IMG/VR virus record: IMGVR_UViG_2896595138_000002
Coordinates: 1-34,565 of that record
Strand: one strand, 5' to 3'
DNA length: 34,565 nucleotides
Source: a virus
Lineage: Duplodnaviria > Heunggongvirae > Uroviricota > Caudoviricetes
Shown piece by piece: positions 4,600-34,565 of this stretch (position 1 is its first letter; each line of letters opens with the position of its first letter). The position numbers and the translations under genes are program-made. The notes beneath the pieces are model-generated. The model saw only the letters and a program-made list of their open reading frames with translations. It did no database searches and was not told the DNA's origin.

Positions 4600-6747
4600 T
4601 TACTGCGAAAGTTTGTTAATGGAAAGGAAGCCGCCAAAGTTGCCGACGTTATTGCGGAACTTACAACCGCTCAGGCATTTGCTGCATTTATCCTTCGTGA
4701 TATCGGACGTTGGCTGGTCATATTCATCCGCGACCGCCGGACCATGATAACCGCACTCATCGCCGCGATAGGTCCAGGTGCAGGTGTTGGCCAGCATGAT
4801 ACGTCCCGGAAAAACAGCGCCGTCCGTTTCCGTCGGCGTGGACAGTACAAAAGAGGCACTCACCGCGCTCAGTTCGCTGCACTGCTCAATGCGCCAGCGG
4901 CTGATCACCTCCTGCTCCGGATCGGCGTCACTGTTTCCGTTGACGAAGTTCACCGCATCCAGAAAACGGGCGTAAACCTTACGCCGGACCACCGTTCCGC
5001 CGACCAGACTCTGCAGATCTTCCGCCATCCCGGTGACCATACCGTACAGGTTAGAAACCGTCAGCGTGGGGCGCGTACTGGTGCCCTTGTCGCCAAGTGC
5101 AGCCAGCTGGTGTTTGTACTCCAGCGTCTCATCTTTATGCGCCAGCAGGGATTTCTCCTGTGCAGACAGCTGGCGACGTTGCGCCGCCTCCTCCAGTACC
5201 GCGAACTGACTCTCCGCCTTCCACAAATCCCGGCGCTGCTGGCTGATTTTCTCATTTGCTCCGGCATGCTTCTCCAGCGTCCGGAGTTCAGCCTGAAGCG
5301 TCAGCAGGGCAGCATGAGCACTGTCTTCCTGACGATCGCCCGCAGACACCTTCACGTCGAACTGTTTCGGCTTTTTCAGCGTCGCTTCATAATCCTTTTT
5401 CGCCGCCGCCATCAGCGTGTTGTAATCTGCCTGCAGAATTTTCCCGTCCTTCAGTGCCTTGTTCAGTTCTTCCTGACGGGCGGTATATTTCTCCAGCGGC
5501 GTCTGCAGGCGTTCATAAGCCTTCTGCGCCTCTTCGGTATATTTCAGCCGTGATGCCTCAGACTCGGCCCAGTCCTTTGCTGCCATCTCTCTGGCCTTTT
5601 CAAGATCGGCCTGCAACGTGCCGGCTGAAAGCCCAAGTTGCGCATTCGCTCTGTCCTCCCATGCTCCCCGGAGATTGGCAAGAAATGCGGATGTTTTACC
5701 GCGCCGGTGGCTCCGGCTCTGATACCACTGCCATTTTTTGTCCGCCTCATCAAAAGCCTTTTCTGCTTTCTCCAGCATTTCCCGGGCAGTGTCCGGGCGA
5801 CCAATATCCAGCACCGAATCCCACATGGATTTGAATGCCCGCGCTGTCCTGTCTGCCCAGGTCTCCAGCGTGCCCATGTTCTCTTTCAGGCGGCGGGTCA
5901 GGTCATCAAACCCTTTCGTTGCGGCCTCGTTCGCCGCCTGCAATGCCCCGGCTTCATCTCCGGAACGCTGCAACTGAGCAACATACGCAATCTGCTCCGC
6001 CGTCACGTTATGGAACTGACGTGCCATCGCTGTCAGTCCCGACGTCGGGTCTGTGGTCAGCTTCCCGAAGGCTTCAGCGACCTTGTCCACCTCCACGCCG
6101 GATGCAGAGGAGAAACGCGCCACACTCTGGCTGATCGCCTCAAACTGCTCACCACCACGCACACCTGCATTCACCAGCGCCGTCAGTGACTCGCTGGTCT
6201 GGTTAAACGTCAGCCCTGCCGCCTGCCCGGCTCTGGACAGGACCAGCATACGATCTGCCGTCAGTCCTGCCTGATTACCGGAAAGGACCAGCGTTTTATT
6301 GAAACTGGACAGGGTTGAGTCCCCCTGATACCAGGCATACGCCAGCGCACCGATCGCCACCGCCAGCGAGGTGGCCCCGACCATCGGCAGGGTGATCGCA
6401 CCGGCAAGCCCCCTGAACATGGGGATCATCCCGCCGAAGGAGTCCTTAACCTGACCACCCTGTTGCAGCAGGATCAGCCACGGACTTTGCCCGCCTGCAA
6501 GCTGCGTGGCCACGTCGGTGAACTGCGCAGGCAGCATACGCATGGCGGCTTTATACTGCCCGACGGAAATCCCCGCTTTCTGTGCAGCCAGCGCCTGTCG
6601 GCTCAGCGACTGTTCAACGACTGCCGCTGTTTTTTTCGCATCACTTTCCGTACCGGAAAAATGACGCCTGACTCTGGCCATCTGCTCGTCAAATCTGGCC
6701 GCATCCAGACTCAAATCAACGACCAGATCGCCTACCGGTTCAGCCAT
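4600..6747 (-). pseudogene. In-frame fusion of lambda H-like tape measure (N-terminal ~560 aa) to the C-terminal ~160 aa of lambda L-like tail protein
   Basis: 715-aa ORF: MAEPVGDLVVDLSLDAARFDEQMARVRRHF... (gpH) switches at ...LAALGDK|GTSTRPTLTVSNLYGMVTGMAED... to gpL C-terminus ending FGGFLSINKLSQ. H C-terminus, all of M and L N-terminus are absent. Confidence 0.8.
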
Positions 6748-12856: not shown

Positions 12857-14121
12857 TCTTCTCCTCCTCTGTTGATTGTCGCAGTCCGGATTCAAATGCC
12901 GCAGCCGCCCAGGCGGGCGGTTTAAGACCGGCTGCACGGCGCTCCATCGTTTCACGGACCTGCTGGGCAAAAATTTCCTGATAGTCGTCACCGCGTTTTG
13001 CGCACTCTTTCTCGTAGGTACTCAGTCCGGCTTCTATCAGCATCACCGCTTCCTGTACTTCTTTCAGACCATCGATGGCCATACGACCGGAGCCTATCCA
13101 GTCACAGTTCCCCCAGGCGCTGCGGGCTTCCTGAAAGCTGAAACGCGCTTTTGAAGGTAACGTCACCACGCGGCGAACGATGGCCTCTTCCAGCCAGCAC
13201 AGAAACATCTGGCTCGCCTGACGGGATGCGACGAATTTTCGCCGCCCCATAAAGTACGCCCACGACTCGTTCGCACTGGCCCGTGCCGTGGAGTAGCTCA
13301 TCTGGGCGTAATTCCGGGAAAGCTGCTCATACGAGACACCCAGCCCGGCAGCGATATACCGCAACAGTGACTGCTCAAACACGGAGTAGCCGTTATCCGT
13401 GTCCTGAGCCGTCTGCAGGTTCAGTGAGTCCCCCGGCATCAGGTGCGGCACTTTTGCGCCTCCCAGACGGACCGGTGCTGCGGCGTAATACGCGGCAATT
13501 TCACCAATCCAGCCGGTCAGCTTGTCCCGCTGCTCCTTACTGTTCGCGCCCAGAATAAAATCCATCGCTGACTGCGTATCCAGCTCACTCTCAATGGTGG
13601 CGACATACATCGCCTTCACAATGGCGCTCTGCAGCTGCGTGTTCTGCAGTGTGTCGAGCATCTTCATCTGCTCCATCACGCTGTAAAACACATTTGCACC
13701 GCGGGTCTGCCCGTCCTCCACGGGTTCAAAAACGTGAATGAACGAGGCGCGCCCGCCGGGTAACTCACGGGGTATCCATGTCCATTTCTGCGGCATCCAG
13801 CCAGGATAGCCGTCCTCGCTGACGTAATATCCCAACGCCGCACCGCTGTCATTAATCTGCACACCGGCACGGCAGTTCCGGCTGTCGCCGGTATTGTTCG
13901 GGTTGCTGATGCGCTTCGGGCTGACCATCCGGAACTGTGTCCGGAACAGTCGCGAGGGACTGGTATCCCAGGTGGCCTGAACGAACAGTTCACCGTTAAA
14001 GGCGTGCATGGCCACACCTTCCCGAATCATCATGGTAAACGTGCGTTTCCGCTCAACGTCAATGCAGCAGCAGTCATCCTCGGCAAACTCTTTCCATGCC
14101 GCTTCAACCTCGCGGGAAAAA
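12837..14121 (-). pseudogene. B: Lambda B-like portal protein, 5'-truncated (about 105 N-terminal codons missing) by IS insertion
   Basis: ORF 12837..14165: gpB homology runs from ...FSREVEAAWKEFAEDDCCCIDVERKRTFTMMIREGVAMHAFNGELF... to ...EEEKSDSRAA; the first ~14 codons of the ORF are IS600-derived. Confidence 0.85.
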
Positions 14122-14941
14122 TTTCGCACGTATAAACATCTTTGATGCCAGCGAGGTACAACCATCCCTCCTGTGTGGCAACATACGTCAGGTCCGCCAC
14201 CCAGACCTGATTTGGTGCTGTAGGAGCGAACGTCTGGTTCAGCAGATTTGGCGCAACTGGCAGATTGTGGTTCGGGTTCGTAGTCGCTCTGAACTTGCGT
14301 TTCTGCTTACAGCGTAGCCTTAGCTCCTTACGAAGACGTGCCAGTCGGTCACGACCAACGATGATGCCATTCTCTGCCAGCTCCGTCTGGAGCCGCCGGG
14401 TTCCATATGTTTCGCGAGTGCGGATATGTGCCACCTTAATCTCCAGTTTTAGCCGCTCATCACTTTGTTTTCTGTCTGAGGGTTCATGCTGTACCCAGTT
14501 GTAATAACCGCTCCTGGATACACCAAATACCTGACACATCGCTTCAATGGGAAATTGTTGTCGCCATTGTTCGATTAACGCGTATTTTTCAGCGACTCCT
14601 GTGCAAAATACGCTGTTGCTTTTTTTAATATATCTCGCTCAAGGCGAGCTTCATTTAACGCCTTACGCAGTTGCAGAATTTCAGATTCCAGTTCAGCCAC
14701 CGTGCGGGAACCAGGAGTACCGAGCCCTTTTCTGGCGGCGGTAACCCATTGTCCTAAAGTGCCTTCAGGAAGGGATAATCGGGAAGCGCCTTCACTGATC
14801 GAAAGTTGATTTTCAAGAACCGTTCTGACAGCTTCGGCTTTGAACTCTTTAGAGTAACGTTGGGTTTTTCTGCTCATTATTAGCTCCTTCTGATGCCATT
14901 CTATTTCAGGAAGGAGTGTCCGTTAAACTCAGGCTACCTCA
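14122..14941 (-). mobile_element. IS600 (IS3 family), partial copy 1: left end + orfA + about 140 codons of orfB
   Basis: Left-end sequence TGAGGTAGCCTGAGTTTAACGGACACTCC (RC at 14919..14941); orfA at 14575..14877; identity to the other copies stops at 14122 where portal sequence begins. Confidence 0.85.
14575..14877 (-). CDS. IS600 OrfA (helix-turn-helix transposase subunit)
   Basis: 100-aa ORF MSRKTQRYSKEFKAEAVRTVLENQLSISEGASRLSLPEG...KKATAYFAQESLKNTR; A7 run at plus 14620..14626. Confidence 0.9.
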   Translation of the reverse strand: MSRKTQRYSKEFKAEAVRTVLENQLSISEGASRLSLPEGTLGQWVTAARKGLGTPGSRTVAELESEILQLRKALNEARLERDILKKATAYFAQESLKNTR

Positions 14942-15872
14942 GACTTTTGCTGGCCCGAAGACCAAATCCGAAGCGCCCGTTCTTTTCATCACGAAAGTTT
15001 TGCTCTATCTGCATTCGCCGACTGTATAACTTGATGATTTCTCGCGCTCTGAAGTCATTTGTACTGCTGAAGATCAACCAGGCTTCTTTTGCTGATTTGC
15101 TCTGTTCTTTGTCTGTTTTGTTTAAACCACTCTGACCTTTCGAACGTTTCTTTTTTCGCCCTTTTGCCGATTTCTTATAGGTGTAAAAATGCCCCCGGAT
15201 GCTTTTTTTCCTTTCTTTAACCAGCCTTCCAGCCCCCATATATTCCGGTGTTTTACATTCAGGGCTATCCGACACTTTTAACCATCTTTCAGGCGCGTTA
15301 TCGAGGCAATACTGAACGTTATTTCTGATCCGACCAATAAAATCCCAGCCCAGAGAAGTAATATGGTGAAACCATGCGCTCTGAAATCCAGCATCCGTGA
15401 CAATAATAACCCTGGCATCGGGGGGCAGGGATTGAGCAAGGGAATCAAGGAAATCATGTTGTATCAATGGATTATTTTGTTTTTCAGAAGGAACAACCTT
15501 ACTCAATAACGGAATGGAACGCCCGTCACACAGAAGGCTGGCACGAAGAACATGATGCTCCTGGGAGGGATAGCCACTCCAGTCTACGGCTATTACACAT
15601 AAAGATAACTGCCGTGTCAGCATTGAAGTGATATTCCTGAAAATCATTGGAATATCGCGATGGAGCGCCTCATTACCCATGAGGCGATCAATACGTTTGA
15701 TCTTATTCTTAACTTGTGCATTACCCGGCAAAAAACGTCCGATACTGGTCAGCGTCAGAGATGCTCCGTTGATTAACGCCACTGTGGCATCCATCAGGGC
15801 ATTTTGTCGGTACTGATGAAATGGTGCTAAGGCATCCCGGAAGAAATTCTGACATACTTTATGAACAGGCAT
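14942..15872 (-). pseudogene. IS10-like DDE transposase, C-terminal ~80 aa missing
   Basis: Homology ends at the IS600 junction, about 14941. Confidence 0.7.
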
Positions 15873-15954
15873 AGCAGTGATCTCATTGAATTGTTGGCAC
15901 AAATCAGTAGATCACATAATGCTATGTCTGTCTCGTTTTCTGGGGATTCCTCAG
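14942..15954 (-). mobile_element. IS4-family (IS10-like) element fragment, 3'-truncated by IS600 copy 1
   Basis: Transposase ORF 14934..15902 with IS10-like motifs (IKRIDRL, VDWS, LRAS, DAGF, KGRKKKRS, IYSKRMQIEQNFRD); terminus CTGAGGAATCCCC (RC) at about 15942..15954. Confidence 0.7.
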
Positions 15955-15982
15955 CCCAGAAGGGTGGGAATGGTGGACGTTT

Positions 15983-20502: not shown

Positions 20503-20810
20503 TGCTGGTTCAGAGTTAAAAAAACTATTATTTTTTTCATATGTTACCGTAATATGTGAGTATCCATCGACTAGACACTAAGCAAAAAAGCTCCCGAAGG
20601 AGCCTTCATTTTCACTTTCTTAAATCTAACGACAGATGGCTAACATTTAAGTATTGTGAAATATTATCAAATGTAATCATCATTGATTTACAAAAGATAC
20701 ATTTTGCCCCGAAAGGATTTCTGTCAGAAACATCAAAAGATGTTGTTCTATACTGAGAACCATGGCAACACGGGCATCTAAAGTGAATATGGTTTGTAAT
20801 ATTTTCTACC

Positions 20811-21023
20811 TCAAAGTGCCACTACATGAACAGCTGCAGGGCCTTTAGGTCCGTTCTCAATACCAAATTCGACTTCCTGATTCTCAGTTAACGTTTTGAA
20901 ATCGTTGCTCTGAATAGCTGAGAAATGCACAAACACATCTTTGCTACCATCTTTCGGCGTGATGAAACCAAAACCTTTTTCAGGGTTAAACCATTTCACT
21001 AAACCAGTCATTTTGTTAGACAT
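20811..21023 (-). CDS. cspI: Cold-shock protein, CspA family
   Basis: 70-aa [70 protein letters not shown]; RNP1/RNP2 motifs. Confidence 0.9.
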
Positions 21024-21083
21024 TATTATTACCTTTTGAAGAAGTTACCCTTAAGATTTCAAGGATTTTGACTCATGGAAGAG

Positions 21084-22348
21084 TGAGGTAGCCTGAGTTT
21101 AACGGACACTCCTTCCTGAAATAGAATGGCATCAGAAGGAGCTAATAATGAGCAGAAAAACCCAACGTTACTCTAAAGAGTTCAAAGCCGAAGCTGTCAG
21201 AACGGTTCTTGAAAATCAACTTTCGATCAGTGAAGGCGCTTCCCGATTATCCCTTCCTGAAGGCACTTTAGGACAATGGGTTACCGCCGCCAGAAAAGGG
21301 CTCGGTACTCCTGGTTCCCGCACGGTGGCTGAACTGGAATCTGAAATTCTGCAACTGCGTAAGGCGTTAAATGAAGCTCGCTTTGAGCGAGATATATTAA
21401 AAAAAAGCAACAGCGTATTTTGCACAGGAGTCGCTGAAAAATACGCGTTAATCGAACAATGGCGACAACAATTTCCCATTGAAGCGATGTGTCAGGTATT
21501 TGGTGTATCCAGGAGCGGTTATTACAACCGGGTACAGCATGAACCCTCAGACAGAAAACAAAGTGATGAGCGGCTAAAACTGGAGATTAAGGTGGCACAT
21601 ATCCGCACTCGCGAAACATATGGAACCCGGCGGCTCCAGACGGAGCTGGCAGAGAATGGCATCATCGTTGGTCGTGACCGACTGGCACGTCTTCGTAAGG
21701 AGCTAAGGCTACGCTGTAAGCAGAAACGCAAGTTCAGAGCGACTACGAACCCGAACCACAATCTGCCAGTTGCGCCAAATCTGCTGAACCAGACGTTCGC
21801 TCCTACAGCACCAAATCAGGTCTGGGTGGCGGACCTGACGTATGTTGCCACACAGGAGGGATGGTTGTACCTCGCTGGCATCAAAGATGTTTATACGTGC
21901 GAAATTGTCGGCTACGCCATGGGAGCGCGCATGACAAAAGAGCTGACAGGTAAAGCCCTGTTTATGGCGCTCAGGAGCCAGCGCCCACCTGCCGGGCTAA
22001 TCCACCACCCTGATCGAGGTTCACAGTACTGCGCATACGATTACCGGGTCATACAGGAGCAGTTTGGTCTGAAAACATCAATGTCGCGTAAAGGTAACTG
22101 TTACGACAACGCTCCGATGGAAAGCTTCTGGGGAACGCTGAAAAATGAGAGCCTGAGCCACTATCGTTTTAATAACCGGGATGAAGCCATCTCAGTAATA
22201 CGGGAATACATTGAGATTTTCTACAATCGTCAGCGTCGTCACTCTCGTCTGGGGAATATCTCCCCGGCAGCCTTCAGGGAAAAATATCATCAGATGGCTG
22301 CTTAAAAAAAGAACAAATGGTAGTGTCCGCTATTGCCAGTACACCTCA
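21084..22348 (+). mobile_element. IS600 copy 2, complete, flanked by 3-bp direct repeat GAG
   Basis: Ends TGAGGTAGCCTGAG... and ...GCCAGTACACCTCA; GAG at 21081..21083 and 22349..22351; 1265 bp. Confidence 0.9.
21148..22305 (+). CDS. IS600 transposase as a single fused OrfAB reading frame (385 aa)
   Basis: A8 run at 21399..21406 (A7 in copies 1 and 3) joins orfA to orfB in one frame: ...DILKKSNSVFCTGVAEKYALIEQWRQQFPIEAMCQVFGVSR...; DDE domain present. Confidence 0.85.
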   Translation: MSRKTQRYSKEFKAEAVRTVLENQLSISEGASRLSLPEGTLGQWVTAARKGLGTPGSRTVAELESEILQLRKALNEARFERDILKKSNSVFCTGVAEKYALIEQWRQQFPIEAMCQVFGVSRSGYYNRVQHEPSDRKQSDERLKLEIKVAHIRTRETYGTRRLQTELAENGIIVGRDRLARLRKELRLRCKQKRKFRATTNPNHNLPVAPNLLNQTFAPTAPNQVWVADLTYVATQEGWLYLAGIKDVYTCEIVGYAMGARMTKELTGKALFMALRSQRPPAGLIHHPDRGSQYCAYDYRVIQEQFGLKTSMSRKGNCYDNAPMESFWGTLKNESLSHYRFNNRDEAISVIREYIEIFYNRQRRHSRLGNISPAAFREKYHQMAA

Positions 22349-24126: not shown

Positions 24127-24342
24127 TTACTCTCCCCGTGCAGCCTTACGACGGTCCTCTCTGATTTTGAAATACAGGTTAGTCAGATATGTCAGCAGCC
24201 CAAACAGCCGACTCCCCAGCACGCCTATTGCCGCCCACTGAGACGGGGAAACCCTGTCCAGCAACTGCAGGAACCAGTAGCCCGTTCCCACCGCTGACGT
24301 GGTGTATGACACACCTGTTGTGATTTTTTCCATCTGGTCCAT
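24127..24342 (-). CDS. Class II holin (phage-21 S-type pinholin) with dual-start motif
   Basis: [44 protein letters not shown]...[21 protein letters not shown]; Met1 and Met4 dual starts. Confidence 0.85.
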
Positions 24343-24449
24343 ACCCCGTCTCCCGTTATCCGGAAGCTGACAACAATAAAAAAGCCACCAGTTAACTACT
24401 GATGGCTCTGATAACTCATGCAAGCGTCTCAGACGACCCACTGACACTA

Positions 24450-24853
24450 CCGGTGAGTTTAACGATACCTTCCATTTGACTGGCTCACTTTTTATGATGA
24501 TGCCGGTGCATTTATCTCCAGCACCAGACTTTCTATCTCAACGCCATACGTTGCATTTTTGGTAATATCCGTCAGCGTCAGTGCATTTAGTCCCACTGCC
24601 AGACTGTCTTTTATGGCCTGGAATGCCGGGCCAGTACGATGACGTAGTATCACTCCGGCTCAGTTGCACCACTGACCACCACATCACCTTCTGCTGCAAT
24701 CGCCTGCATCAGGGTATAAGGGGTTATGGCCACCGGACTACCAAACGGCTGCCAGCCCTCTTTCAGTTTATGTGTCAGCTTTTCCGCAAGATCTGACGGC
24801 GGCGCCGCCCTGACAACATCATAGTGTTTAAATGCCATGGTTCTTTCCACCAT
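24450..24853 (-). pseudogene. Small prophage protein (possibly DUF1737-type), apparently frameshifted
   Basis: ORF 24650..24853 (MAFKHYDVVRAAPPSDLAEKLTHKLKEGWQPFGSP...) stops, while protein-like sequence (...[45 protein letters not shown]) continues to 24450 in another frame. Confidence 0.45.
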
Positions 24854-25097
24854 CTGAAAAATAATTCTTTAAAATACCTGACATGTAATACAGAAAAAAC
24901 ACAAAACCATACCTTAAATAAAAACCTGATTATCAAGCAGATATGCATGGATAAACTACAAGACGAGATATAAACCACCCTGCATTTAAATAAACAATAA
25001 ACAACATCAGAAAAATAATTCTGCTCTATGGTTTAATTCAAAAATATCATTTATACTTTTCAGAACATCACCAGAAAGGCATAAACAAGGAAACTAA

Positions 25098-25433
25098 ATG
25101 AAGTGGATTGTGATTGATACAGTTATCCAGCCATCATGCGGAATATCTTTTTCAGTCATATGGAGTAAAATAAAATTAATAATCTGGTATCAATCGGATG
25201 CTTTCTTACCTCCTGAAAGTATATTTACACTGACTCACACAGGCATCATGCTCAATAACAAAGTGCTACCTGTAACCATTTACAACGTAGTACCATTCAA
25301 TAAAACATTCTGGAATTTAATCAAAAACAGCCAGGAATGCCCTACAAATACAGATAACGTATTGAATGAATGCTTTAATAACCGTTGCACTCTGCAAATA
25401 TGTCCTTATGGACTAAAACAACAAAGTCCATAA
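25098..25433 (+). CDS. Hypothetical Cys-rich 111-aa protein in an AT-rich island
   Basis: AGGA SD 6 nt before ATG; six Cys including [26 protein letters not shown]; no recognisable family. Confidence 0.35.
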
Positions 25434-25451
25434 GGAGTTTACTCACATCTG

Positions 25452-25489
25452 ACAAAATCAATATAAACAGCCCCTCCGGAGAGGGCTGG
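25452..25489 (-). terminator. Rho-independent terminator-like hairpin (minus strand)
   Basis: Near-palindrome CAGCCCCTCCGGAGAGGGCTGG followed on the minus strand by TTTATATTGATTTTGT. Confidence 0.45.
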
Positions 25490-26087
25490 AGAGTGGCGCT
25501 ATGTGCCATTGCATGGTGCCGGGTGCCTCCCGGTGAATTCAGTACCAGCACCTGAATCCGCGATTATCCCATATACCTACTCGCTGATTTCCCCTCCGCA
25601 CAGGGGGATTCACCATGCCAGTTTCTTTTAACAAACTCCCGCAAACCAGACAACAGTCAACCGCCTGAATTGTGAAGTATTTAAAAATTTCTCCCGCTAA
25701 CTGATACCCGGCTAACAGTCTGGCGTTTTCTTTTTCAGCAACGGGAAAGCAACAACCACCACACCCGCCACCAGCACACCGTCAGCCAGCACTGACATTA
25801 TCCGGCTGCTGCAATGCCATTCACAAAAACAGTAAGCAATCACTTTTTACCGTAACAGGTGATAATCCAGATATGTATCCTGAGGTGTACTGGCAATAGC
25901 GGACACTACCATTTGTTCTTTTTTTAAGCAGCCATCTGATGATATTTTTCCCTGAAGGCTGCCGGGGAGATATTCCCCAGACGAGAGTGACGACGCTGAC
26001 GATTGTAGAAAATCTCAATGTATTCCCGTATTACTGAGATGGCTTCATCCCGGTTATTAAAACGATAGTGGCTCAGGCTCTCATTTT

Positions 26088-26741
26088 TCAGCGTTCCCAG
26101 AAGCTTTCCATCGGAGCGTTGTCGTAACAGTTACCTTTACGCGACATTGATGTTTTCAGACCAAACTGCTCCTGTATGACCCGGTAATCGTATGCGCAGT
26201 ACTGTGAACCTCGATCAGAGTGGTGGATTAGCCCGGCAGGTGGGCGCTGGCTCCTGAGCGCCATAAACAGGGCTTTACCTGTCAGCTCTTTTGTCATGCG
26301 CTCTCCCATGGCGTAGCCGACAATTTCGCACGTATAAACATCTTTGATGCCAGCGAGGTACAACCATCCCTCCTGTGTGGCAACATACGTCAGGTCCGCC
26401 ACCCAGACCTGATTTGGTGCTGTAGGAGCGAACGTCTGGTTCAGCAGATTTGGCGCAACTGGCAGATTGTGGTTCGGGTTCGTAGTCGCTCTGAACTTGC
26501 GTTTCTGCTTACAGCGTAGCCTTAGCTCCTTACGAAGACGTGCCAGTCGGTCACGACCAACGATGATGCCATTCTCTGCCAGCTCCGTCTGGAGCCGCCG
26601 GGTTCCATATGTTTCGCGAGTGCGGATATGTGCCACCTTAATCTCCAGTTTTAGCCGCTCATCACTTTGTTTTCTGTCTGAGGGTTCATGCTGTACCCAG
26701 TTGTAATAACCGCTCCTGGATACACCAAATACCTGACACAT
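26088..26741 (-). CDS. IS600 OrfB (DDE integrase domain), 3' end frameshifted
   Basis: ORF ends ...ESFWER*, other copies read ...ESFWGTLKNESLSHYRF...; C-run 26089..26091 is 3 long. Confidence 0.8.
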   Translation of the reverse strand: MCQVFGVSRSGYYNWVQHEPSDRKQSDERLKLEIKVAHIRTRETYGTRRLQTELAENGIIVGRDRLARLRKELRLRCKQKRKFRATTNPNHNLPVAPNLLNQTFAPTAPNQVWVADLTYVATQEGWLYLAGIKDVYTCEIVGYAMGERMTKELTGKALFMALRSQRPPAGLIHHSDRGSQYCAYDYRVIQEQFGLKTSMSRKGNCYDNAPMESFWER

Positions 26742-26776
26742 CGCTTCAATGGGAAATTGTTGTCGCCATTGTTCGA

Positions 26777-27079
26777 TTAACGCGTATTTTTCAGCGACTC
26801 CTGTGCAAAATACGCTGTTGCTTTTTTTAATATATCTCGCTCAAGGCGAGCTTCATTTAACGCCTTACGCAGTTGCAGAATTTCAGATTCCAGTTCAGCC
26901 ACCGTGCGGGAACCAGGAGTACCGAGCCCTTTTCTGGCGGCGGTAACCCATTGTCCTAAAGTGCCTTCAGGAAGGGATAATCGGGAAGCGCCTTCACTGA
27001 TCGAAAGTTGATTTTCAGGAACCGTTCTGACAGCTTCGGCTTTGAACTCTTTAGAGTAACGTTGGGTTTTTCTGCTCAT
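26777..27079 (-). CDS. IS600 OrfA
   Basis: 100-aa ORF identical in pattern to copy 1 except L20P (RTVPENQ). Confidence 0.9.
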   Translation of the reverse strand: MSRKTQRYSKEFKAEAVRTVPENQLSISEGASRLSLPEGTLGQWVTAARKGLGTPGSRTVAELESEILQLRKALNEARLERDILKKATAYFAQESLKNTR

Positions 27080-27258
27080 TATTAGCTCCTTCTGATGCCA
27101 TTCTATTTCAGGAAGGAGTGTCCGTTAAACTCAGGCTACCTCAACAGGATGGACTTAGCAATGGCTGCTCCTGGCACAAAGCGGACAGTGATCACCGTTC
27201 TTACGACTACTTTCTGACTTCCTTCGTGACTTGCCCTAAGCATGTTGTAGTGCGATAC

Positions 27259-27282
27259 TTGTAATGACATTTGTAATTACAA
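27259..27282 (+). promoter_or_regulatory. relBE operator-like inverted repeats (TTGTAAT-N-ATTACAA) in the relB promoter region
   Basis: cTTGTAATgacatTTGTAATTACAAg 13 bp upstream of the relB start. Confidence 0.65.
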
Positions 27283-27294
27283 GAGGTGTAAGAC

Positions 27295-27534
27295 ATGGGT
27301 AGCATTAACCTGCGTATTGACGATGAACTTAAAGCGCGTTCTTACGCCGCGCTTGAAAAAATGGGTGTAACTCCTTCTGAAGCGCTTCGTCTCATGCTCG
27401 AGTATATCGCTGACAATGAACGCTTGCCGTTCAAACAGACACTCCTGAGTGATGAAGATGCTGAACTTGTGGAGATAGTGAAAGAACGGCTTCGTAATCC
27501 TAAGCCAGTACGTGTGACGCTGGATGAACTCTGA
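27295..27534 (+). CDS. relB: RelB antitoxin
   Basis: 79-aa ORF MGSINLRIDDELKARSYAALEKMGVTPSEALRLMLEYIADNERLPFKQTLLSDEDAELVEIVKERLRNPKPVRVTLDEL. Confidence 0.95.
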   Translation: MGSINLRIDDELKARSYAALEKMGVTPSEALRLMLEYIADNERLPFKQTLLSDEDAELVEIVKERLRNPKPVRVTLDEL

Positions 27535-27821
27535 TGGCGTATTTTCTGGATTTTGACGAGCGGGCACTAAAGGAATGGCGAAAGCTGGGCTCGACGGTAC
27601 GTGAACAGTTGAAAAAGAAGCTGGTTGAAGTACTTGAGTCACCCCGGATTGAAGCAAACAAGCTCCGTGGTATGCCTGATTGTTACAAGATTAAGCTCCG
27701 GTCTTCAGGCTATCGCCTTGTATACCAGGTTATAGACGAGAAAGTTGTCGTTTTCGTGATTTCTGTTGGGAAAAGAGAACGCTCGGAAGTATATAGCGAG
27801 GCGGTCAAACGCATTCTCTGA
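27534..27821 (+). CDS. relE: RelE mRNA interferase toxin
   Basis: 95-aa ORF MAYFLDFDERALKEWRKLGSTVREQLKKKLVEVLESPRIEANKLRGMPDCYKIKLRSSGYRLVYQVIDEKVVVFVISVGKRER...; ATGA overlap with relB. Confidence 0.95.
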   Translation: MAYFLDFDERALKEWRKLGSTVREQLKKKLVEVLESPRIEANKLRGMPDCYKIKLRSSGYRLVYQVIDEKVVVFVISVGKRERSEVYSEAVKRIL

Positions 27822-27892
27822 ACCAAAGCATGACATCTCTGTTTCGCACCGAAGGTGACACTTCTGCTTTGCGTTGACAGGAGAAGCAGGCT

Positions 27893-28048
27893 ATGAAGCA
27901 GCAAAAGGCGATGTTAATCGCCCTGATCGTCATCTGTTTAACCGTCATAGTGACGGCACTGGTAACGAGGAAAGACCTCTGCGAGGTACGAATCCGAACC
28001 GGCCAGACGGAGGTCGCTGTCTTCACAGCTTACGAACCTGAGGAGTAA
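27893..28048 (+). CDS. hokD: Hok-family type I toxin (HokD/RelF-like), 51 aa
   Basis: MKQQKAMLIALIVICLTVIVTALVTRKDLCEVRIRTGQTEVAVFTAYEPEE, translated directly from the sequence (below the ORF-track size cutoff). Confidence 0.85.
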   Translation: MKQQKAMLIALIVICLTVIVTALVTRKDLCEVRIRTGQTEVAVFTAYEPEE

Positions 28049-28116
28049 GAGACCCGGCGAGTGAGAAATCCCTCGCCACCTCTGATGTGGCAGGCATCCT
28101 CAACGCACCCGCACTT

Positions 28117-28147
28117 AACCCGCTTCGGCGGGTTTTTGTTTTTATTT
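28117..28147 (+). terminator. Rho-independent terminator after hokD
   Basis: AACCCGCttcgGCGGGTTTTTGTTTTTATTTT. Confidence 0.75.
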
Positions 28148-28265
28148 TCAACGCATTTGAAATTCTGGATGGTGCCGGAATAGAATCAAAAATACTTAAG
28201 TAGCGCGCAGGGATAAGAGGGATGGACCCCGAACAGGGGAGTGCTATTTATCTGGAAGGATTCTG

Positions 28266-28517
28266 ATGATGAACATCGAAGAACTGCGTAAAATTTTTTG
28301 TGAAGATGGCCTCTATGCTGTGTGCGTTGAAAATGGAAATATTGTTAGTCATTACCGCATTGTGTGTTTGCAAAAAAATGGGGCTGCGTTAATTAATTTT
28401 GTGGATGCCCGAGTGACGGACGGATTTATCTTGCGCGACGGTGAGTTTGTCACTTCATTACAGGCATTGAAAGAGATCGGAATAAAAGCTGGCTTTTCTG
28501 CTTTTTCAGAAGAATAA
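28266..28517 (+). CDS. rem: Small prophage protein of unknown function (Rem-like position and size)
   Basis: 83-aa ORF immediately downstream of relBE-hokD, as for rem in Qin; identity by position and length only. Confidence 0.5.
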   Translation: MMNIEELRKIFCEDGLYAVCVENGNIVSHYRIVCLQKNGAALINFVDARVTDGFILRDGEFVTSLQALKEIGIKAGFSAFSEE

Positions 28518-28582
28518 ACTCATCTACAATCTTGCGCGGGCTGAACTCCCGCTGAGTAACACCGTGCCACCGGAGAAAACCG

Positions 28583-28861
28583 ATGGCACGCAACGCAAAA
28601 TATTACAATCATGATAATTCGACCGTTCTTGCCCACACGCACGAGCGGTATTCTCACGCATTTAAGTCAGACTGGTACCAGCATCCCTCATGCACTGAAG
28701 AACAGGCCGAATGGCTCATTCAGTGTTACCGCAGGCGCGGATGCGAGGTTAAAAAAGCCCTTAGCCTCGACTACCGTCACTGGATAATCTCCGTCAGGCT
28801 CCCTTACTCCGAACAGCCACCGCGTCCGTCCCGCACATTCCAGCAACGGATCTGGAGGTAA
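28583..28861 (+). CDS. Hypothetical 92-aa protein, stop/start-coupled to the following gene
   Basis: ORF ends TAA 1 nt before the GTG start of the next gene; Cys/His-containing. Confidence 0.4.
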   Translation: MARNAKYYNHDNSTVLAHTHERYSHAFKSDWYQHPSCTEEQAEWLIQCYRRRGCEVKKALSLDYRHWIISVRLPYSEQPPRPSRTFQQRIWR

Positions 28862-28862
28862 C

Positions 28863-29912
28863 GTGCGGGTATTACTTCGACCTGTTCTGGTTCCGGAACT
28901 CGGGCTGGTGGTCCTTAAGCCCGGTCGTGAATCCATGCCGGTATTCCACAATACCCGGTTACTGGTGGAGCCGGAACCGAAAAGCATGCGTAATCTGCCG
29001 TCCGGGGTCGTTCCTGCCGCTCGCCAGCCGCTGGTGGAAGACAAAACATTGCTGCCGTTTTTCAGTAACGCACGGGTGATTCGTGCTGCTGGTGGTGCTG
29101 GTGCATTGTCTGACTGGCTGTTGCGCCATATTAAATCCTGCCAGTGGCCACACGGCGATTATCATCACAGCGAAACCGTCATTCACCGTTATGGTACCGG
29201 CGCAATGGTGTTGTGCTGGCACTGCGACAACCAGCTGCGTGACCAGACATCCGAATCACTCGAGCAACTTGCTCATCAAAACCTGTCAGCATGGATGATT
29301 GACGTCATCGGTCACGCAATAAGCGGTACGCAGGAGCGTGAACTATCTCTGGCTGAATTATCCTGGTGGGCGGTCCGCAATCAGGTGGCGGACGCGCTAC
29401 CGGAAGCGGTATTACGTCGTTCGCTGGGGTTGCGTGCGGAAAAAATCCGCTCAATGTTCCGTGAAAGCGACATCGTACCGGGAGAGCAGACCGCCACCAG
29501 CATACTGAAACAGCGCACAAAAAATCTTGCGCCGCTGCCTCACGCCCACCAGCAACAGAACCCACCACAGGAAAAGACGGTGGTCAGCATTGCCGTTGAT
29601 CCTGAGTCTCCGGAATCTTTCATGAAACGACCTAAACGTCGCCGCTGGGTTAACGAGAAATACAAACGCTGGGTGAAGACACAGCCGTGTGCGTGTTGTG
29701 GTAAGCCAGCCGACGATCCCCATCACCTGATTGGTCATGGTCAGGGCGGAATGGGGACAAAATCTCACGATATTTTCACGCTACCGCTGTGTCGGGAGCA
29801 TCACAACGAGCTTCATGCGGATCCTCTGGCGTTCGAAGAAAAGCATGGTTCTCAGGTTGATTTAATTTTTCGTTTTCTTGATCACGCCTTTGCAACTGGC
29901 GTGCTTGGGTAA
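28863..29912 (+). CDS. ydfU: DUF968-like protein with C-terminal HNH-type Cys/His motif (YdfU-like)
   Basis: 349-aa ORF; ...QPCACCGKPADDPHHLIGHGQGGMGTKSHDIFTLPLCREHHNELH...; sits between rem and rusA/Q. Confidence 0.6.
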   Translation: MRVLLRPVLVPELGLVVLKPGRESMPVFHNTRLLVEPEPKSMRNLPSGVVPAARQPLVEDKTLLPFFSNARVIRAAGGAGALSDWLLRHIKSCQWPHGDYHHSETVIHRYGTGAMVLCWHCDNQLRDQTSESLEQLAHQNLSAWMIDVIGHAISGTQERELSLAELSWWAVRNQVADALPEAVLRRSLGLRAEKIRSMFRESDIVPGEQTATSILKQRTKNLAPLPHAHQQQNPPQEKTVVSIAVDPESPESFMKRPKRRRWVNEKYKRWVKTQPCACCGKPADDPHHLIGHGQGGMGTKSHDIFTLPLCREHHNELHADPLAFEEKHGSQVDLIFRFLDHAFATGVLG

Positions 29913-29924
29913 AAGAGGTGACTG

Positions 29925-30282
29925 ATGCTCATAGATTTGGTTTTACCTTACCCGCCGACGGTGAACACTTACTGGCGACGCCGTGGCAGCACATATTTTA
30001 TCTCGGAGGAGGGAAAGCGTTATCGCCGGGCTGTGGCGCTTATTGTTCGCCAGCAGCGGCTGAAATTAAGCCTGTCCGGAAGGCTGGCGATAAAGGTGAT
30101 TGCAGAGCCACCGGATAAGCGTCGTCGCGACCTGCGACAATATCCTGAAAGCACCGCTGGATGCGCTGACGCATACGGGAGTGTTAATGGACGATGAGCA
30201 GTTTGATGAAATCAATATCGTTCGTGGTCAGCCAGTATCTGGTGGACGTCTGGGGGTGAAGATTTACCCCATAATGCATTAA
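29925..30282 (+). pseudogene. rusA: RusA-like Holliday junction resolvase, frameshifted
   Basis: ORF 29925..30197 (MLIDLVLPYPPTVNTYWRRRG...EPPDKRRRDL) then ORF 30100..30282 (...DNILKAPLDALTHTGVLMDDEQFDEINIVRGQPVSGGRLGVKIY) in the +1 frame; single-base insertion near 30121. Confidence 0.75.
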
Positions 30283-30296
30283 GAGCAGGTCAAAAA

Positions 30297-31118
30297 ATGA
30301 AACTGGAAGATTTACCGAAATACTACTCCCCAAAATCCCCTGGCCTGACCGATGCATCGGCCTCAACGTCAAAAGATGCGCTGAGTATCACTGATGTGAT
30401 GGCCGCGCAGGGCATGACACAGAATCGGGCTGAGATGGGTTTTTCTGCGTTCCTGGGGAAAATGGGCATCAGTATGAATGACAGGGCGCGGGCAACAGAA
30501 TTACTGGCAGATTATGCACTCAGTCGGTGCGATCGTGTGGCGGCGTTGAGAAAACTTCCGGCAGAAATAAAACCGGTAGTGATGCGCATTATGGCTTCGT
30601 ACGCTTTTGAGGATTATGCCCGCAGCGCAGCGAGTAAAAAGCAGTGCCCTTGTTGCTATGGGGAAAAATTTATTGAAAGCATAGTTTTTACAAACAAGGT
30701 CCAGTATCCGGATGGTAAGCCGCCGGTATGGGCAAAGTGTACGAAAGGTGTGTATCCGTCTTACTGGGAAGAATGGAAAAAAGTCAGGGAGGTGGTAAAA
30801 GTTGCCTGTCCGGAGTGTGGCGGAAAGGGTGAGGTTTCCACCGCCTGTAAGGATTGCCGTGGGCGTGGTGTCGCCATTCATCGTGAAGAGTCGGTAAAAC
30901 GTGGTATGCCTGTTATCAGAGACTGCCAGCGTTGTGGTGGTCGTGGCTATGAAAGACTACCATCAACGGAGGCATTTAATGCTATATGCGAGGTGACAAA
31001 CCAGATAACACGCGCGTCATGGGAAAAAACAGTTAAGAAATTTTATGATGCGCTGGTGACCCGGTTTGATATTGAAGAAGCATGGGCTGAGCGGCAGTTA
31101 AAAAAGGTAACTAGGTAA
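30297..31118 (+). CDS. Late-gene antiterminator Q-like protein with DnaJ-type CxxCxGxG zinc-finger repeats
   Basis: 273-aa ORF just upstream of a promoter/terminator pair and tRNAs; motifs CPECGGKG, CKDCRGRG, CQRCGGRG; placement after rusA typical of lambdoid Q. Confidence 0.6.
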   Translation: MKLEDLPKYYSPKSPGLTDASASTSKDALSITDVMAAQGMTQNRAEMGFSAFLGKMGISMNDRARATELLADYALSRCDRVAALRKLPAEIKPVVMRIMASYAFEDYARSAASKKQCPCCYGEKFIESIVFTNKVQYPDGKPPVWAKCTKGVYPSYWEEWKKVREVVKVACPECGGKGEVSTACKDCRGRGVAIHREESVKRGMPVIRDCQRCGGRGYERLPSTEAFNAICEVTNQITRASWEKTVKKFYDALVTRFDIEEAWAERQLKKVTR

Positions 31119-31131
31119 CAAGGTAACAAGG

Positions 31132-31159
31132 TTGATTTTTCCGGAATCTGTGGTAAATT
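31132..31159 (+). promoter_or_regulatory. Candidate late promoter (PR'-like): TTGATT-16 nt-TAAATT with TG extension
   Basis: Motif match 14 bp after the Q stop codon. Confidence 0.4.
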
Positions 31160-31208
31160 CGTCATAACGATGGGCGTTTTATGCCTGACGTTAGAAGAGT
31201 TTCTACAA

Positions 31209-31232
31209 CCCGCCGCTGAGCGGATTTTTTAT
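31209..31232 (+). terminator. Candidate tR'-like terminator (short GC stem + T-run)
   Basis: CCGCtgaGCGG then ATTTTTTATT. Confidence 0.35.
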
Positions 31233-31269
31233 TGCGAAATTAATTACGGACCGTTATTATTCTGCTCCC

Positions 31270-31345
31270 GGCCCTTTAGCTCAGTGGTGAGAGCGAGCGA
31301 CTCATAATCGCCAGGTCGCTGGTTCAAATCCAGCAAGGGCCACCA
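31270..31345 (+). tRNA. ileZ: tRNA with CAU anticodon (Ile2/ileZ-like, or Met)
   Basis: 76 nt GGCCCTTTAGCTCAGTGGTGAGAGCGAGCGACTCATAATCGCCAGGTCGCTGGTTCAAATCCAGCAAGGGCCACCA; cloverleaf folds with a 7-bp acceptor stem and encoded CCA. Confidence 0.85.
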
Positions 31346-31443
31346 TCACAAACCGGCATTAGCTTATCAGGAAGAGCAGACGACACGATAACAGGGTTGT
31401 TGGTGCGGGGCGGGTCCCGATGGCGGTCCATTATCGGTATTCA

Positions 31444-31520
31444 GCGTTGTTAGCTCAGCCGGACAGAGCAATTGCCTTCTAAGCAATCGGTCACTGGTTC
31501 GAATCCAGTACAGCGCGCCA
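31444..31520 (+). tRNA. argN: tRNA-Arg (anticodon UCU), argN/argU-like
   Basis: 77 nt GCGTTGTTAGCTCAGCCGGACAGAGCAATTGCCTTCTAAGCAATCGGTCACTGGTTCGAATCCAGTACAGCGCGCCA; anticodon loop CTTCTAA. Confidence 0.85.
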
Positions 31521-31630
31521 TATTCATTCTTCCAGATTCCTTCCGGCAGAGCCTTATACTGAAATATACTTGGCTCAGGATATTGTTGAAAATATTATAT
31601 GTTTGTCAAAAATAAAAGTTCTGTTAAGTA

Positions 31631-31984
31631 TTGATTGAGTATTTGTTATACGGTCTAATGGTTTTTTCAGCATTAAATATTTATCATTCATATGGTGCGG
31701 GTAGAGTGAATATTGATGAGGCGTCGGGGTGTTTCATCCTTAGGCAGCGTATTGATATAGTCAATGCAGCACGAGCAAAGGCCTTCAGCCGTTTGACAGT
31801 TTTGTTCTGTACTCCTGATCGTCTTTCGGGAAGAGACGTTATTATTCTGAATAGTGATGCTATACAGAGGGTTTGCGATGAGTTCATGGTTGCTAATTCA
31901 GAATTATTTGCTCTTGTTCAGGAGTACAACAGAATAGCCAGGACCTGTGGTATGGATGAACTTCGGATTACTCATCTGGGGTAG
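31631..31984 (+). CDS. Hypothetical protein (117 aa) in the Q/tRNA moron slot, probably 3'-truncated by IS600
   Basis: AT-rich ORF; its stop codon TAG ends 1 nt before the IS600 left end; no recognised family; first in-frame ATG at 31658. Confidence 0.35.
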   Translation: MIEYLLYGLMVFSALNIYHSYGAGRVNIDEASGCFILRQRIDIVNAARAKAFSRLTVLFCTPDRLSGRDVIILNSDAIQRVCDEFMVANSELFALVQEYNRIARTCGMDELRITHLG

Positions 31985-31985
31985 A

Positions 31986-33250
31986 TGAGGTAGCCTGAGT
32001 TTAACGGACACTCCTTCCTGAAATAGAATGGCATCAGAAGGAGCTAATAATGAGCAGAAAAACCCAACGTTACTCTAAAGAGTTCAAAGCCGAAGCTGTC
32101 AGAACGGTTCCTGAAAATCAACTTTCGATCAGTGAAGGCGCTTCCCGATTATCCCTTCCTGAAGGCACTTTAGGACAATGGGTTACCGCCGCCAGAAAAG
32201 GGCTCGGTACTCCTGGTTCCCGCACGGTGGCTGAACTGGAATCTGAAATTCTGCAACTGCGTAAGGCGTTAAATGAAGCTCGCTTTGAGCGAGATATATT
32301 AAAAAAAAGCAACAGCGTATTTTGCACAGGAGTCGCTGAAAAATACGCGTTAATCGAACAATGGCGACAACAATTTCCCATTGAAGCGATGTGTCAGGTA
32401 TTTGGTGTATCCAGGAGCGGTTATTACAACCGGGTACAGCATGAACCCTCAGACAGAAAACAAAGTGATGAGCGGCTAAAACTGGAGATTAAGGTGGCAC
32501 ATATCCGCACTCGCGAAACATATGGAACCCGGCGGCTCCAGACGGAGCTGGCAGAGAATGGCATCATCGTTGGTCGTGACCGACTGGCACGTCTTCGTAA
32601 GGAGCTAAGGCTACGCTGTAAGCAGAAACGCAAGTTCAGAGCGACTACGAACCCGAACCACAATCTGCCAGTTGCGCCAAATCTGCTGAACCAGACGTTC
32701 GCTCCTACAGCACCAAATCAGGTCTGGGTGGCGGACCTGACGTATGTTGCCACACAGGAGGGATGGTTGTACCTCGCTGGCATCAAAGATGTTTATACGT
32801 GCGAAATTGTCGGCTACGCCATGGGAGAGCGCATGACAAAAGAGCTGACAGGTAAAGCCCTGTTTATGGCGCTCAGGAGCCAGCGCCCACCTGCCGGGCT
32901 AATCCACCACTCTGATCGAGGTTCACAGTACTGCGCATACGATTACCGGGTCATACAGGAGCAGTTTGGTCTGAAAACATTAATGTCGCGTAAAGGTAAC
33001 TGTTACGACAACGCTCCGATGGAAAGCTTCTGGGGAACGCTGAAAAATGAGAGCCTGAGCCACTATCGTTTTAATAACCGGGATGAAGCCATCTCAGTAA
33101 TACGGGAATACATTGAGATTTTCTACAATCGTCAGCGTCGTCACTCTCGTCTGGGGAATATCTCCCCGGCAGCCTTCAGGGAAAAATATCATCAGATGGC
33201 TGCTTAAAAAAAGAACAAATGGTAGTGTCCGCTATTGCCAGTACACCTCA
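31986..33250 (+). mobile_element. IS600 copy 4, complete, no target-site duplication
   Basis: Both termini present; flanks AGA / TCA differ; 1265 bp. Confidence 0.9.
32050..33207 (+). CDS. IS600 fused OrfAB transposase (385 aa)
   Basis: A8 run at 32301..32308, as in copy 2. Confidence 0.85.
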   Translation: MSRKTQRYSKEFKAEAVRTVPENQLSISEGASRLSLPEGTLGQWVTAARKGLGTPGSRTVAELESEILQLRKALNEARFERDILKKSNSVFCTGVAEKYALIEQWRQQFPIEAMCQVFGVSRSGYYNRVQHEPSDRKQSDERLKLEIKVAHIRTRETYGTRRLQTELAENGIIVGRDRLARLRKELRLRCKQKRKFRATTNPNHNLPVAPNLLNQTFAPTAPNQVWVADLTYVATQEGWLYLAGIKDVYTCEIVGYAMGERMTKELTGKALFMALRSQRPPAGLIHHSDRGSQYCAYDYRVIQEQFGLKTLMSRKGNCYDNAPMESFWGTLKNESLSHYRFNNRDEAISVIREYIEIFYNRQRRHSRLGNISPAAFREKYHQMAA

Positions 33251-33531
33251 TCATGCTGTACAGTATCTGGTTTTTGTCGTTCTCCCCCAGTTCAAACCAG
33301 GTCACCACACCTTTCACCCGCCGCTGTACGTCATCGCCCTGCCATACCGTCAGGTATGGCCATTTTGTCCAGCACCTGCGCAAATTCAAGGGAAAGAAAC
33401 TGCTGACTGACCAGAGAAAGGTCGAGGGAAAAAAGTGAAGAGAGTGACTGGGTGAGATGAAAGGAAACCACCGCAAAAGCATCCGGTGGCAGGCCGTCCA
33501 CTTCCAGTGTGAAACGTAATCCGGTTGACAT
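33251..33531 (-). pseudogene. vgrG: VgrG (type VI secretion spike) N-terminal fragment, frameshifted and truncated by IS600
   Basis: MSTGLRFTLEVDGLPPDAFAVVSFHLTQSLSSLFSLDLSLVSQQFLSLEFAQVLDKMA then YLTVWQGDDVQRRVKGVVTWFELGENDKNQILYSM in the other frame; GGAGG SD before ATG at 33531; homology stops at the IS600 boundary. Confidence 0.7.
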
Positions 33532-34565
33532 AGCAACCTCCGTGAAAATGAATAATAATCCGCACATATTGCATGTACAACATGTCGGGCGGATGAGATA
33601 AGCGAGTCGACATCTGGCGTTACCGGGGAATATCAGAAAAATGTCATGGTTATGTGATGATTTAGTCTGGGATTTTACTTCAGAGAAACGGGTGTCTGTT
33701 TAGTCAACAAAATAATCACAAACGCAACGGATGGGTTCTCGACGTTATTCACGACAGGCTCGTACATTACAGCGAGTAATAAAAAACCTGATATGCAAAG
33801 TCAAACCAATATTCATAATGTCTTTTTATTCACAACAATAAATAATTCAATAACAATCATTGAAATGAATGATGGTTTGTATAAGGAATATACGCTACCG
33901 CCCCACTCTGATAACATGATCTGCACATTGCCATCTTAACGTCGTTAAACACTGGCTTAATAGTGGATATTTCAAATTAGGAATTTATTAAATTCACCTG
34001 ATGAATATAATAAGCAAATAGCATAGAAAATAATGACAACTCCCTCCGAGAGGACCATTTCCAAAGCACTGCACCACCACCTGGTGCCCGGATGATCTTG
34101 CTTCAGTGGTAAGAGTACCTGATTCATTGTTCCCAAAATGGTGTTTTCCCCTGCCCCTCCAATAATGTGTAGCTCTCACTTGATAATCTATTGATTAGGT
34201 TATATTAAGAATCAATATTTAAAATACATCCATTTCCTTGAATAAATCAACATGTTTATTTATCAATTGCTGTTTTAGCTCTGACTCATCAAGCTCTCCA
34301 TATTTGTACTACAGATAATCGCGAATAAATACAGAGAACGCCATTTATCCTTTTAGCATACCTGCCGGATATTTTTATTTGTATTAATATTAATTGCATC
34401 TCCAAGTCCGAGCATATCCATCATTAAAAACATTTTGAGATTATAGAATACCTGTGATAACAAGAGAAACATCTGCACAATGTGAATAGTTAGTTTCTTT
34501 TCAGAGGAAATGAAATAGACAAGCTGAATGAAAGGGAGAGTGATATAAATTAAAAAACATAACAT

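Follow-up and report, generated by a model that had tools for sequence, protein, structure and literature searches.

An intact relBE-hokD operon of Qin type beside a probable IS600 inversion scar

The window (the whole stretch of DNA analysed, 34,565 nucleotides) very probably carries the canonical relBEF operon of a Qin-type lambdoid cryptic prophage, and the IS600 copy adjacent to it is, in the same reading, the scar of an inversion and without effect on the operon. The operon is an already-known system and nothing in it is new in kind. Its importance is slight; the case shows that a textbook toxin-antitoxin operon has stayed intact (100% protein identity, operator kept) inside a prophage scrambled by IS600, a survival that fits a self-contained operon. 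The analysis also has corrective value. The original prediction had described a type II and a type I toxin module in tandem, with an IS600 inserted upstream that could supply read-in transcription or separate the operon from upstream elements; here the hok gene is not a stand-alone type I module, the IS is best read as an inversion breakpoint and not as a promoter-proximal insertion, and the orientation of the IS argues against read-in.

Genes of the operon

The following features were recognised downstream of the promoter region.

27295-27534, plus strand: relB, antitoxin and repressor, 79 aa (NCBIfam, K-12 comparison)
27534-27821, plus strand: relE, mRNA-interferase toxin, 95 aa (NCBIfam, K-12 comparison, PDB matches)
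27893-28048, plus strand: hokD (relF), 51-aa Hok-family membrane toxin, third gene of the operon (family models, K-12)
28117-28144, plus strand: terminator-like hairpin and T-run in the 3' region of the hok mRNA (conserved with hok/sok loci)
28266-28517, plus strand: rem, 83 aa, the following gene of Qin type, preceded by a promoter-like site of its own (28157-28186)

RelB, an antitoxin of the RelB/DinJ ribbon-helix-helix family, matched the NCBIfam equivalog NF008412 over its full length (133 bits; cutoff 96). RelE, of the RelE/StbE family of ribosome-dependent mRNA interferases, matched TIGR02385 (54.7 bits; cutoff 27.9) and was aligned over its full length with the RelE chains of PDB entries 4v7k and 4fxe (E down to 1e-57). 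HokD scored 48.5 bits against NF007279, under the curated cutoff of 73, and a Pfam HOK_GEF match was recorded for the same 51-aa product. Each of the three proteins is identical to that of E. coli K-12 MG1655, and the DNA between 27144 and 28150 matches that of K-12 at 99.8% identity, with 2 mismatches over 1007 nt. The full segment 27144-28520 was present in 1111 of 5426 complete E. coli genomes, which is well past chance.

The stop codon of relB (TGA, 27532-27534) overlaps the start codon of relE (ATG, 27534-27536) in the sequence TGATG and the antitoxin gene comes first, an arrangement of translational coupling. As the last cistron behind relB and relE, hokD has historically gone by the name relF. 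The transcript of relB, relE and hokD probably ends at the hairpin at 28117-28144. Judged on these comparisons, the operon agrees with the K-12 relBEF family in every respect that can be tested on sequence. The identities originally proposed for relB, relE, hokD, relO and IS600 are right, and every coordinate given with them was confirmed.

Promoter and operator region

The control region of the operon and the start of the divergent ydfV gene overlap.

27231-27236 and 27254-27259, plus strand: inferred relBE promoter, with the -35 hexamer TTGCCC, a 17-nt spacer and the -10 hexamer GATACT
27259-27282: relO operator, four hexads TTGTAA / TGACAT / TTGTAA / TTACAA (sequence and published core)
27144-27270, minus strand: ydfV remnant, codons 1-42 of 101 (comparison with L001 and with K-12 ydfV)

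Positions 27259-27282 read TTGTAATGACATTTGTAATTACAA; all four hexads are intact, and the half-sites follow one another without spacing and overlap the promoter. An intact relO-like operator had been predicted at exactly this place, and the four hexads fit the published relO core, [A/T]TGT[A/C]A (PMC2812701). We infer the two promoter hexamers and, because the published relO footprint spans -10 to +17 (PMC2812701), a transcription start near 27266.

The distance from the end of the IS600 to the promoter and operator is 88-139 bp, the -35 hexamer being 88 bp away, and positions 27178-28053 are identical to the IS-free locus of E. coli S1 (L001). In K-12 the operon is repressed through conditional cooperativity, with RelB2-RelE complexes bound to the four relO hexads. 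Since the sequence is identical, the regulation of the K-12 operon is taken to apply here: the operon would be driven by its own promoter, from about 27266, under autorepression by RelB2-RelE as in K-12, and Lon-dependent activation and mRNA cleavage would likewise be expected.

hokD as a distal cistron

A search with the Rfam model of sok (RF01794) returned no match in 27100-28300 at E<=1. As a positive control, positions 5460-5634 of L002, a homologous prophage, scored 105 bits; that prophage is without relBE and has a complete sok/mok/hok locus. In a pairwise alignment of the window with the hok locus of L002, near-identity sets in at 27879, 14 nt ahead of the hokD start codon; upstream of that position the two show no similarity, and the window has the 3' end of relE instead. 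The mok start, the hok promoter and the 5' leader were absent before hokD in the alignment with the mok-hok locus. By these alignments hokD is a toxin gene with its 3' end only, not a complete type I module, and with sok, mok and the hok promoter replaced by relBE a self-contained type I function would be impossible for it. The tandem arrangement of type II and type I modules thus holds in part: relBE and a Hok toxin gene are there, but a type I module is not, sok and mok being absent.

In the history suggested by this comparison, relBE would have replaced the 5' region of a hok locus; hokD would have lost its promoter, mok and sok, and would now be the distal cistron of a transcript reaching 28117-28144. 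An Rfam match to isrK at 28057-28138 scored 20.7 bits against a gathering threshold of 50; since the corresponding region of L002 matches too, it was set aside as a resemblance to the hairpin and terminator at the hok 3' end.

The adjacent IS600 and the inverted segment

The limits and orientation of the adjacent element, copy 3, were set by BLAST and by alignment of four IS600 copies.

25881-27143, minus strand: IS600 copy 3, IS3 family, 1263 bp, with IRR at 25881 and IRL at 27143
27079->26777, minus strand: IS600 orfA, 100 aa (ORF list, NCBIfam IS3 transposase match)
26741->26088, minus strand: IS600 orfB, truncated, 217 aa (copy alignment, NCBIfam match)
31986-33250, plus strand: IS600 copy 4, proposed recombination partner of copy 3 (copy alignment, flank comparison)
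27144-31985: 4.8-kb segment ydfV'-relBE-hokD-rem-orf92-ydfU-rusA'-Q-tRNA-Met-tRNA-Arg, in inverted orientation with respect to the late genes, between IS600 copies 3 and 4
24181-25880, minus strand: lysis-region DNA (holin start, DUF1737, iraM-like ORF, STnc100 sRNA, DUF3927), left flank of copy 3

The matching sequence is named 'IS3-like element IS600 family transposase' in the E. coli RefSeq annotation. The last base of copy 3 (27143) lies 151 bp upstream of the relB ATG, in agreement with the distance of about 150 bp given originally, and its terminal inverted repeats, TGAGGTAGCC...GTACACCTCA, are present at both ends and of the IS3 type (TG...CA). Copy 3 has an intact orfA and an intact A7 slippery window; in orfB, a 1-bp deletion (G4 to G3) near 26098, just past the ...MESFW motif, removes the C-terminal ~55 aa, and the NCBIfam match covers profile positions 106-322 of 369. 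The transposase of copy 3 is probably defective. The 217-aa orfB product recurs, at four sites across two genomes as well as in metagenome contigs, so that the truncated orfB is a circulating variant and not a one-off error. In copies 2 and 4 an A8 run fuses orfA and orfB into a single frame of 385 aa. Copies 3 and 4 are inverted relative to each other and 99.6% identical, with five differing positions.

Copy 3 interrupts ydfV after codon 42. It has no target-site duplication, the flanks in the orientation of the IS being TGT at IRL and GGA at IRR, and the missing 3-bp duplication indicates later recombination; copy 2 has a perfect duplication (GAG/GAG). The DNA on the far side of copy 3 pointed to the other end of the segment. 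In four other loci (L002, L003, L006 and L009) the uninterrupted site reads ...ctggggtaGATacatatc... and joins the flank found here at the IRL of copy 4 (..ggggtaga) to that found at the IRR of copy 3 (ggatacatatc). On this comparison, 24181-25880 lay ancestrally directly after position 31985. The ancestral contiguity of these two flanks implies that two IS600 copies recombined and turned 27144-31985 around. The strands can be set beside this: in 352-25880 every gene for lysis, head and tail is encoded on the minus strand, opposite to Q, ydfU, rem and relBE with their plus-strand orientation; K-12 has Q, ydfU, rem, hokD, relE and relB all on a single strand.

On its right, copy 4 is flanked by yncH-vgrG backbone DNA. 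A one-step inversion was therefore rejected as the whole history, the remaining C-terminal part of ydfV being expected at that flank, and at least one extra IS600 event is implied. The predicted reciprocal junction, between the C-terminal part of ydfV and the IRR end of an IS600, was absent from the window. In the proposed sequence of events, one IS600 would have entered the divergent ydfV gene at codon 42/43 and another would have entered where the Q-tRNA region meets the lysis genes; these inverted copies would then have recombined and flipped 27144-31985, and at least one further IS600 event would have joined copy 4 to yncH-vgrG. The target duplication inferred at the Q/lysis site is imperfect (AGA and GGA). 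A composite transposon made of copy 3, the segment and copy 4 was also considered and rejected: its outer flanks, TCC (25878-25880) and TCA (33251-33253), form no duplication, and the left outer flank was ancestrally contiguous with the inner right end.

Two loci (L015 and L021) match the window at 100% identity and place it at 536595-571159 of the chromosome record CP026845.1, an IS600-rich and probably Shigella genome, to judge from its IS600 load and neighbours. A 37-mer across the IS600/ydfV' junction was found neither in the GTDB representative genomes nor in metagenome contigs, and the ORF formed by fusion of ydfV' with the IS was not found as a called gene. The copy 3 junction is a strain-level rearrangement scar.

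Other accounts of this arrangement have to meet the same flanks. The presence of an IS600 'inserted' upstream of relB would most simply mean a single insertion with no other rearrangement, and the ends of the IS are indeed complete, with K-12 homology picking up exactly at 27144. This account is almost certainly wrong, however: the missing duplication, in contrast to that of copy 2, is joined by a left flank that is iraM/DUF3927 lysis-region DNA instead of the remainder of ydfV and that continues from the copy 4 flank in the four other loci, and neither junction occurs in any of the 5426 complete E. coli genomes. The comparison of flanks refutes it, and what stands of the original wording is that an IS600 adjoins the operon; the flanks of copy 3 are not neighbours in the other genomes examined. 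The orientation of 27144-31985 might instead be an artefact of assembly, or the segment might flip within the population, given that it is bounded by 1.26-kb inverted repeats of 99.6% identity, that its orientation consequently depends on the quality of the assembly, and that these junctions are known from one public record only. We regard either as exceedingly improbable, since the record is a single contig of 4.93 Mb and copies 3 and 4 can be told apart at their five differing positions; both orientations would in any case leave relBE beside the IS600 IRL end at 27143. Copy 3 is thus best read, on its flanks, as the scar of a recombination junction in a decaying genome and not as a regulatory insertion.

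Expected effect of IS600 on relBE expression

The IRL of copy 3 abuts the operon, and orfA and orfB are transcribed away from relB. A promoter-like site for the transposase (27128->27100, minus strand) is likewise directed away from relB. In the IS3 family the outward-reading -35 element is located in the IRR and an inward -10 element in the IRL (PMC3219604). Standard scans of the plus strand returned no promoter-like site, either within the IS or where it joins the operon; a relaxed scan (8/12) of the plus strand of 26600-27262 gave only the relBE promoter and a weak site at 26763. Copy 3 also has three terminator-like hairpins on the path of any read-through toward relB. Beyond it, the iraM-like ORF (25098-25433, plus strand) now points toward relB from a distance of 1.9 kb, and may give weak read-through across the antisense IS.

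Read-in transcription into relB from the IS600 side is unlikely, because the IS faces away and meets the operon with its IRL, a frameshift disrupts its orfB, and the plus strand has no promoter-like site at or close to the junction. With the IRL end against the operon, the IS pointing away from it and the promoter and operator untouched, expression of relBE is expected to be that of the IS-free locus, and the IS is most likely without effect.

Three accounts would nevertheless give the rearrangement a role in expression. That IS600, or the genes beyond it, gives read-in that raises or deregulates expression of relBE-hokD is suggested by the mere 88 bp between the IS and the -35 hexamer, by the iraM-like ORF made co-directional with relB by the rearrangement, and by the weak site at 26763 within the IS. 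It is very unlikely nonetheless: the transposase genes and their promoter-like site face away, the end on the relB side is the IRL and not the IRR that carries the outward -35 in this family, the junction forms no hybrid promoter, and the path leads through 1.26 kb of untranslated antisense IS with its terminator-like hairpins. Co-transcription of relB with relE and autorepression at relO would moreover be expected to buffer extra transcription (from PMC2812701). Should read-in be shown after all, the locus would offer a modest case of a toxin-antitoxin operon deregulated by an IS.

The remaining two accounts centre on ydfV, which is divergent from relB and whose ATG (27270-27268, minus strand) is located inside the second relO hexad. 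Its mRNA would start within relB, antisense to it, so that the loss of ydfV, or of transcription through it, might alter the regulation of relBE; the gene keeps 42 codons here and 86 native codons in L003, L004 and L009, where a different IS600 is involved. Such an effect is scarcely to be expected, as no function or family is known for ydfV, and the truncation leaves unchanged both its 5' part and any promoter it has (inside relB), the C-terminus alone being affected. In the broadest form of the argument, the rearrangement rewired relBE-hokD and was selected: truncation of ydfV and the co-directional iraM-like and antisense IS600 DNA would add transcription or lift interference at relO, and the IS600 junctions that two Shigella-type lineages acquired independently in ydfV, a gene of 306 bp, would speak for selection rather than chance. 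We find this highly improbable as well. As for separation of the operon from upstream elements by the IS, it is correct that ydfV is cut and that the DNA on the flxA side has been exchanged for lysis-region DNA, but ydfV and flxA are divergent in the IS-free loci, and we know of no upstream regulatory element at IS-free ydfV-flxA loci. The reading preferred here remains that of an operon under its own control beside a scar.

Comparison with known systems

The closest known system is relBEF of the Qin cryptic prophage of K-12 MG1655 (b1564-b1562), in which the proteins are identical and the promoter, relO and terminator agree within the 99.8% given above; rem, ydfU and a Q-type antiterminator follow downstream in both. 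The two differ upstream, where K-12 has intact ydfV and flxA, whereas here ydfV is cut and is followed by lysis-region DNA in inverted relation. Downstream, Rem differs from that of K-12 at 5 residues and YdfU at 50, and the Q gene here is of the 273-aa PF03589 type.

Three other loci, L003, L004 and L009 (CP102209.1, NEDR01000002.1 and CP044155.1), likewise have an intact relBE-hokD with an IS600 beside ydfV and are 99.1% identical to the window over 27144-31986. In contrast to the window, their IS600 has the opposite orientation, abuts with its IRR at ydfV codon 86, which truncates the gene to 86 native codons, and lies 132 bp farther from relB; their Q-tRNA region continues unbroken into the lysis region. 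The IS600 in these loci is an independent event.

With hok/sok loci the operon shares the Hok coding sequence, the Shine-Dalgarno region, the 3' UTR and the terminator, almost base for base from 27879, but here these are without the sok gene, the mok start, the hok promoter and the 5' fold-back partner. Copy 3 differs from the typical IS600 in its frameshifted orfB and in its want of a duplication. The elements of the window otherwise correspond to IS600 of the IS3 family in their TGAGG...CCTCA ends, in the overlap of orfA and orfB at the A7 run and in the 3-bp duplication seen at copy 2, and multiple copies mediate inversions and deletions, as described for Shigella chromosomes.

Decay of the prophage and further breakpoints

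The truncated IS600 copy 1 is cut off at 14120, within the portal gene region, and is adjoined by a transposase ORF (DDE_Tnp_1; 14934-15902), the element of which is also present elsewhere in the same genome (locus L014).

14120-15957, truncated IS600 copy 1 with the adjoining transposase ORF

In the 715-aa ORF at 4600-6747 (-), an N-terminus of the tape-measure type (TMP_2) is fused to a C-terminal portion of minor tail protein L. Such a hybrid indicates an internal deletion of the tail module, and thus a defective prophage. The rusA homologue at 29925-30197 (+) is truncated (90 aa, versus 118-124 aa in related loci). At the left end, the sequence begins within a fragment of a ydfI-like mannitol dehydrogenase gene (1-351), to which the tail genes are joined at about 352; at the right end, yncH-vgrG backbone DNA (33251-34565) is joined to IS600 copy 4 and runs to the end of the window. 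Both junctions are additional breakpoints of rearrangement.

Genes adjoining the IS600 copies

A cspI-like cold-shock gene is preceded, at a distance of 60 bp, by IS600 copy 2, which is flanked by a perfect GAG duplication.

20811-21023 (-), cspI-like cold-shock gene
20780-21131 (-), Rfam cspA thermoregulator match, containing the start of copy 2 (21084)

Since copy 2 begins inside the thermoregulator match, the native promoter of the cspI-like gene is probably gone, together with some of the 5' leader.

A full-length Rfam match to the STnc100 sRNA (117 bits) was located between the iraM-like ORF and a DUF3927 ORF. This block is the DNA now upstream of IS600 copy 3.

25098-25433 (+), iraM-like ORF
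25459-25647 (-), STnc100 sRNA (Rfam)

Two tRNA genes lie directly downstream of the 273-aa Q antiterminator gene; as a result of the inversion, they no longer adjoin the lysis genes.

31270-31345 (+), tRNA-Met(CAT)
31444-31520 (+), tRNA-Arg(TCT)

In three related loci (L003, L004 and L009), the 101-aa 'ydfV' call (4700-5005) is a fusion ORF. IS600 interrupts ydfV at codon 86, and the frame extends 15 codons into the element; by chance, these codons restore the native length.

IS600 transposase variants

In copy 3, a G4 to G3 deletion near 26098 shifts the frame of orfB (26088-26741, -), giving a truncated product of 217 aa. Two genomes (CP026824.1 and CP026845.1) encode an identical product at four sites altogether, and it is also found in Logan/ENA contigs; given this recurrence, the frameshifted form is a predicted defective variant that has spread.

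The frameshift window of IS600 contains an A7 run in copies 1 and 3 and an A8 run in copies 2 and 4, by which orfA and orfB are joined as a single 385-aa frame. Such 385-aa products are also present in L003 and L004.

21084-22348, IS600 copy 2 (ORF 21148-22305)
31986-33250, IS600 copy 4 (ORF 32050-33207)

Comparison with known systems

Frame-fused IS3-family transposases have been made by engineering (PMC3219604); the A8 copies are their equivalent in nature. Tyrosine sites in a UACG context in hok mRNAs are reported to be A-to-I edited by TadA, yielding cysteine (recent preprint, 10.1101/2025.08.07.668861). Codon 47 of hokD (28031-28033) is the tyrosine codon TAC in CUUACGAA, in the UACG context; this site is kept in the window.
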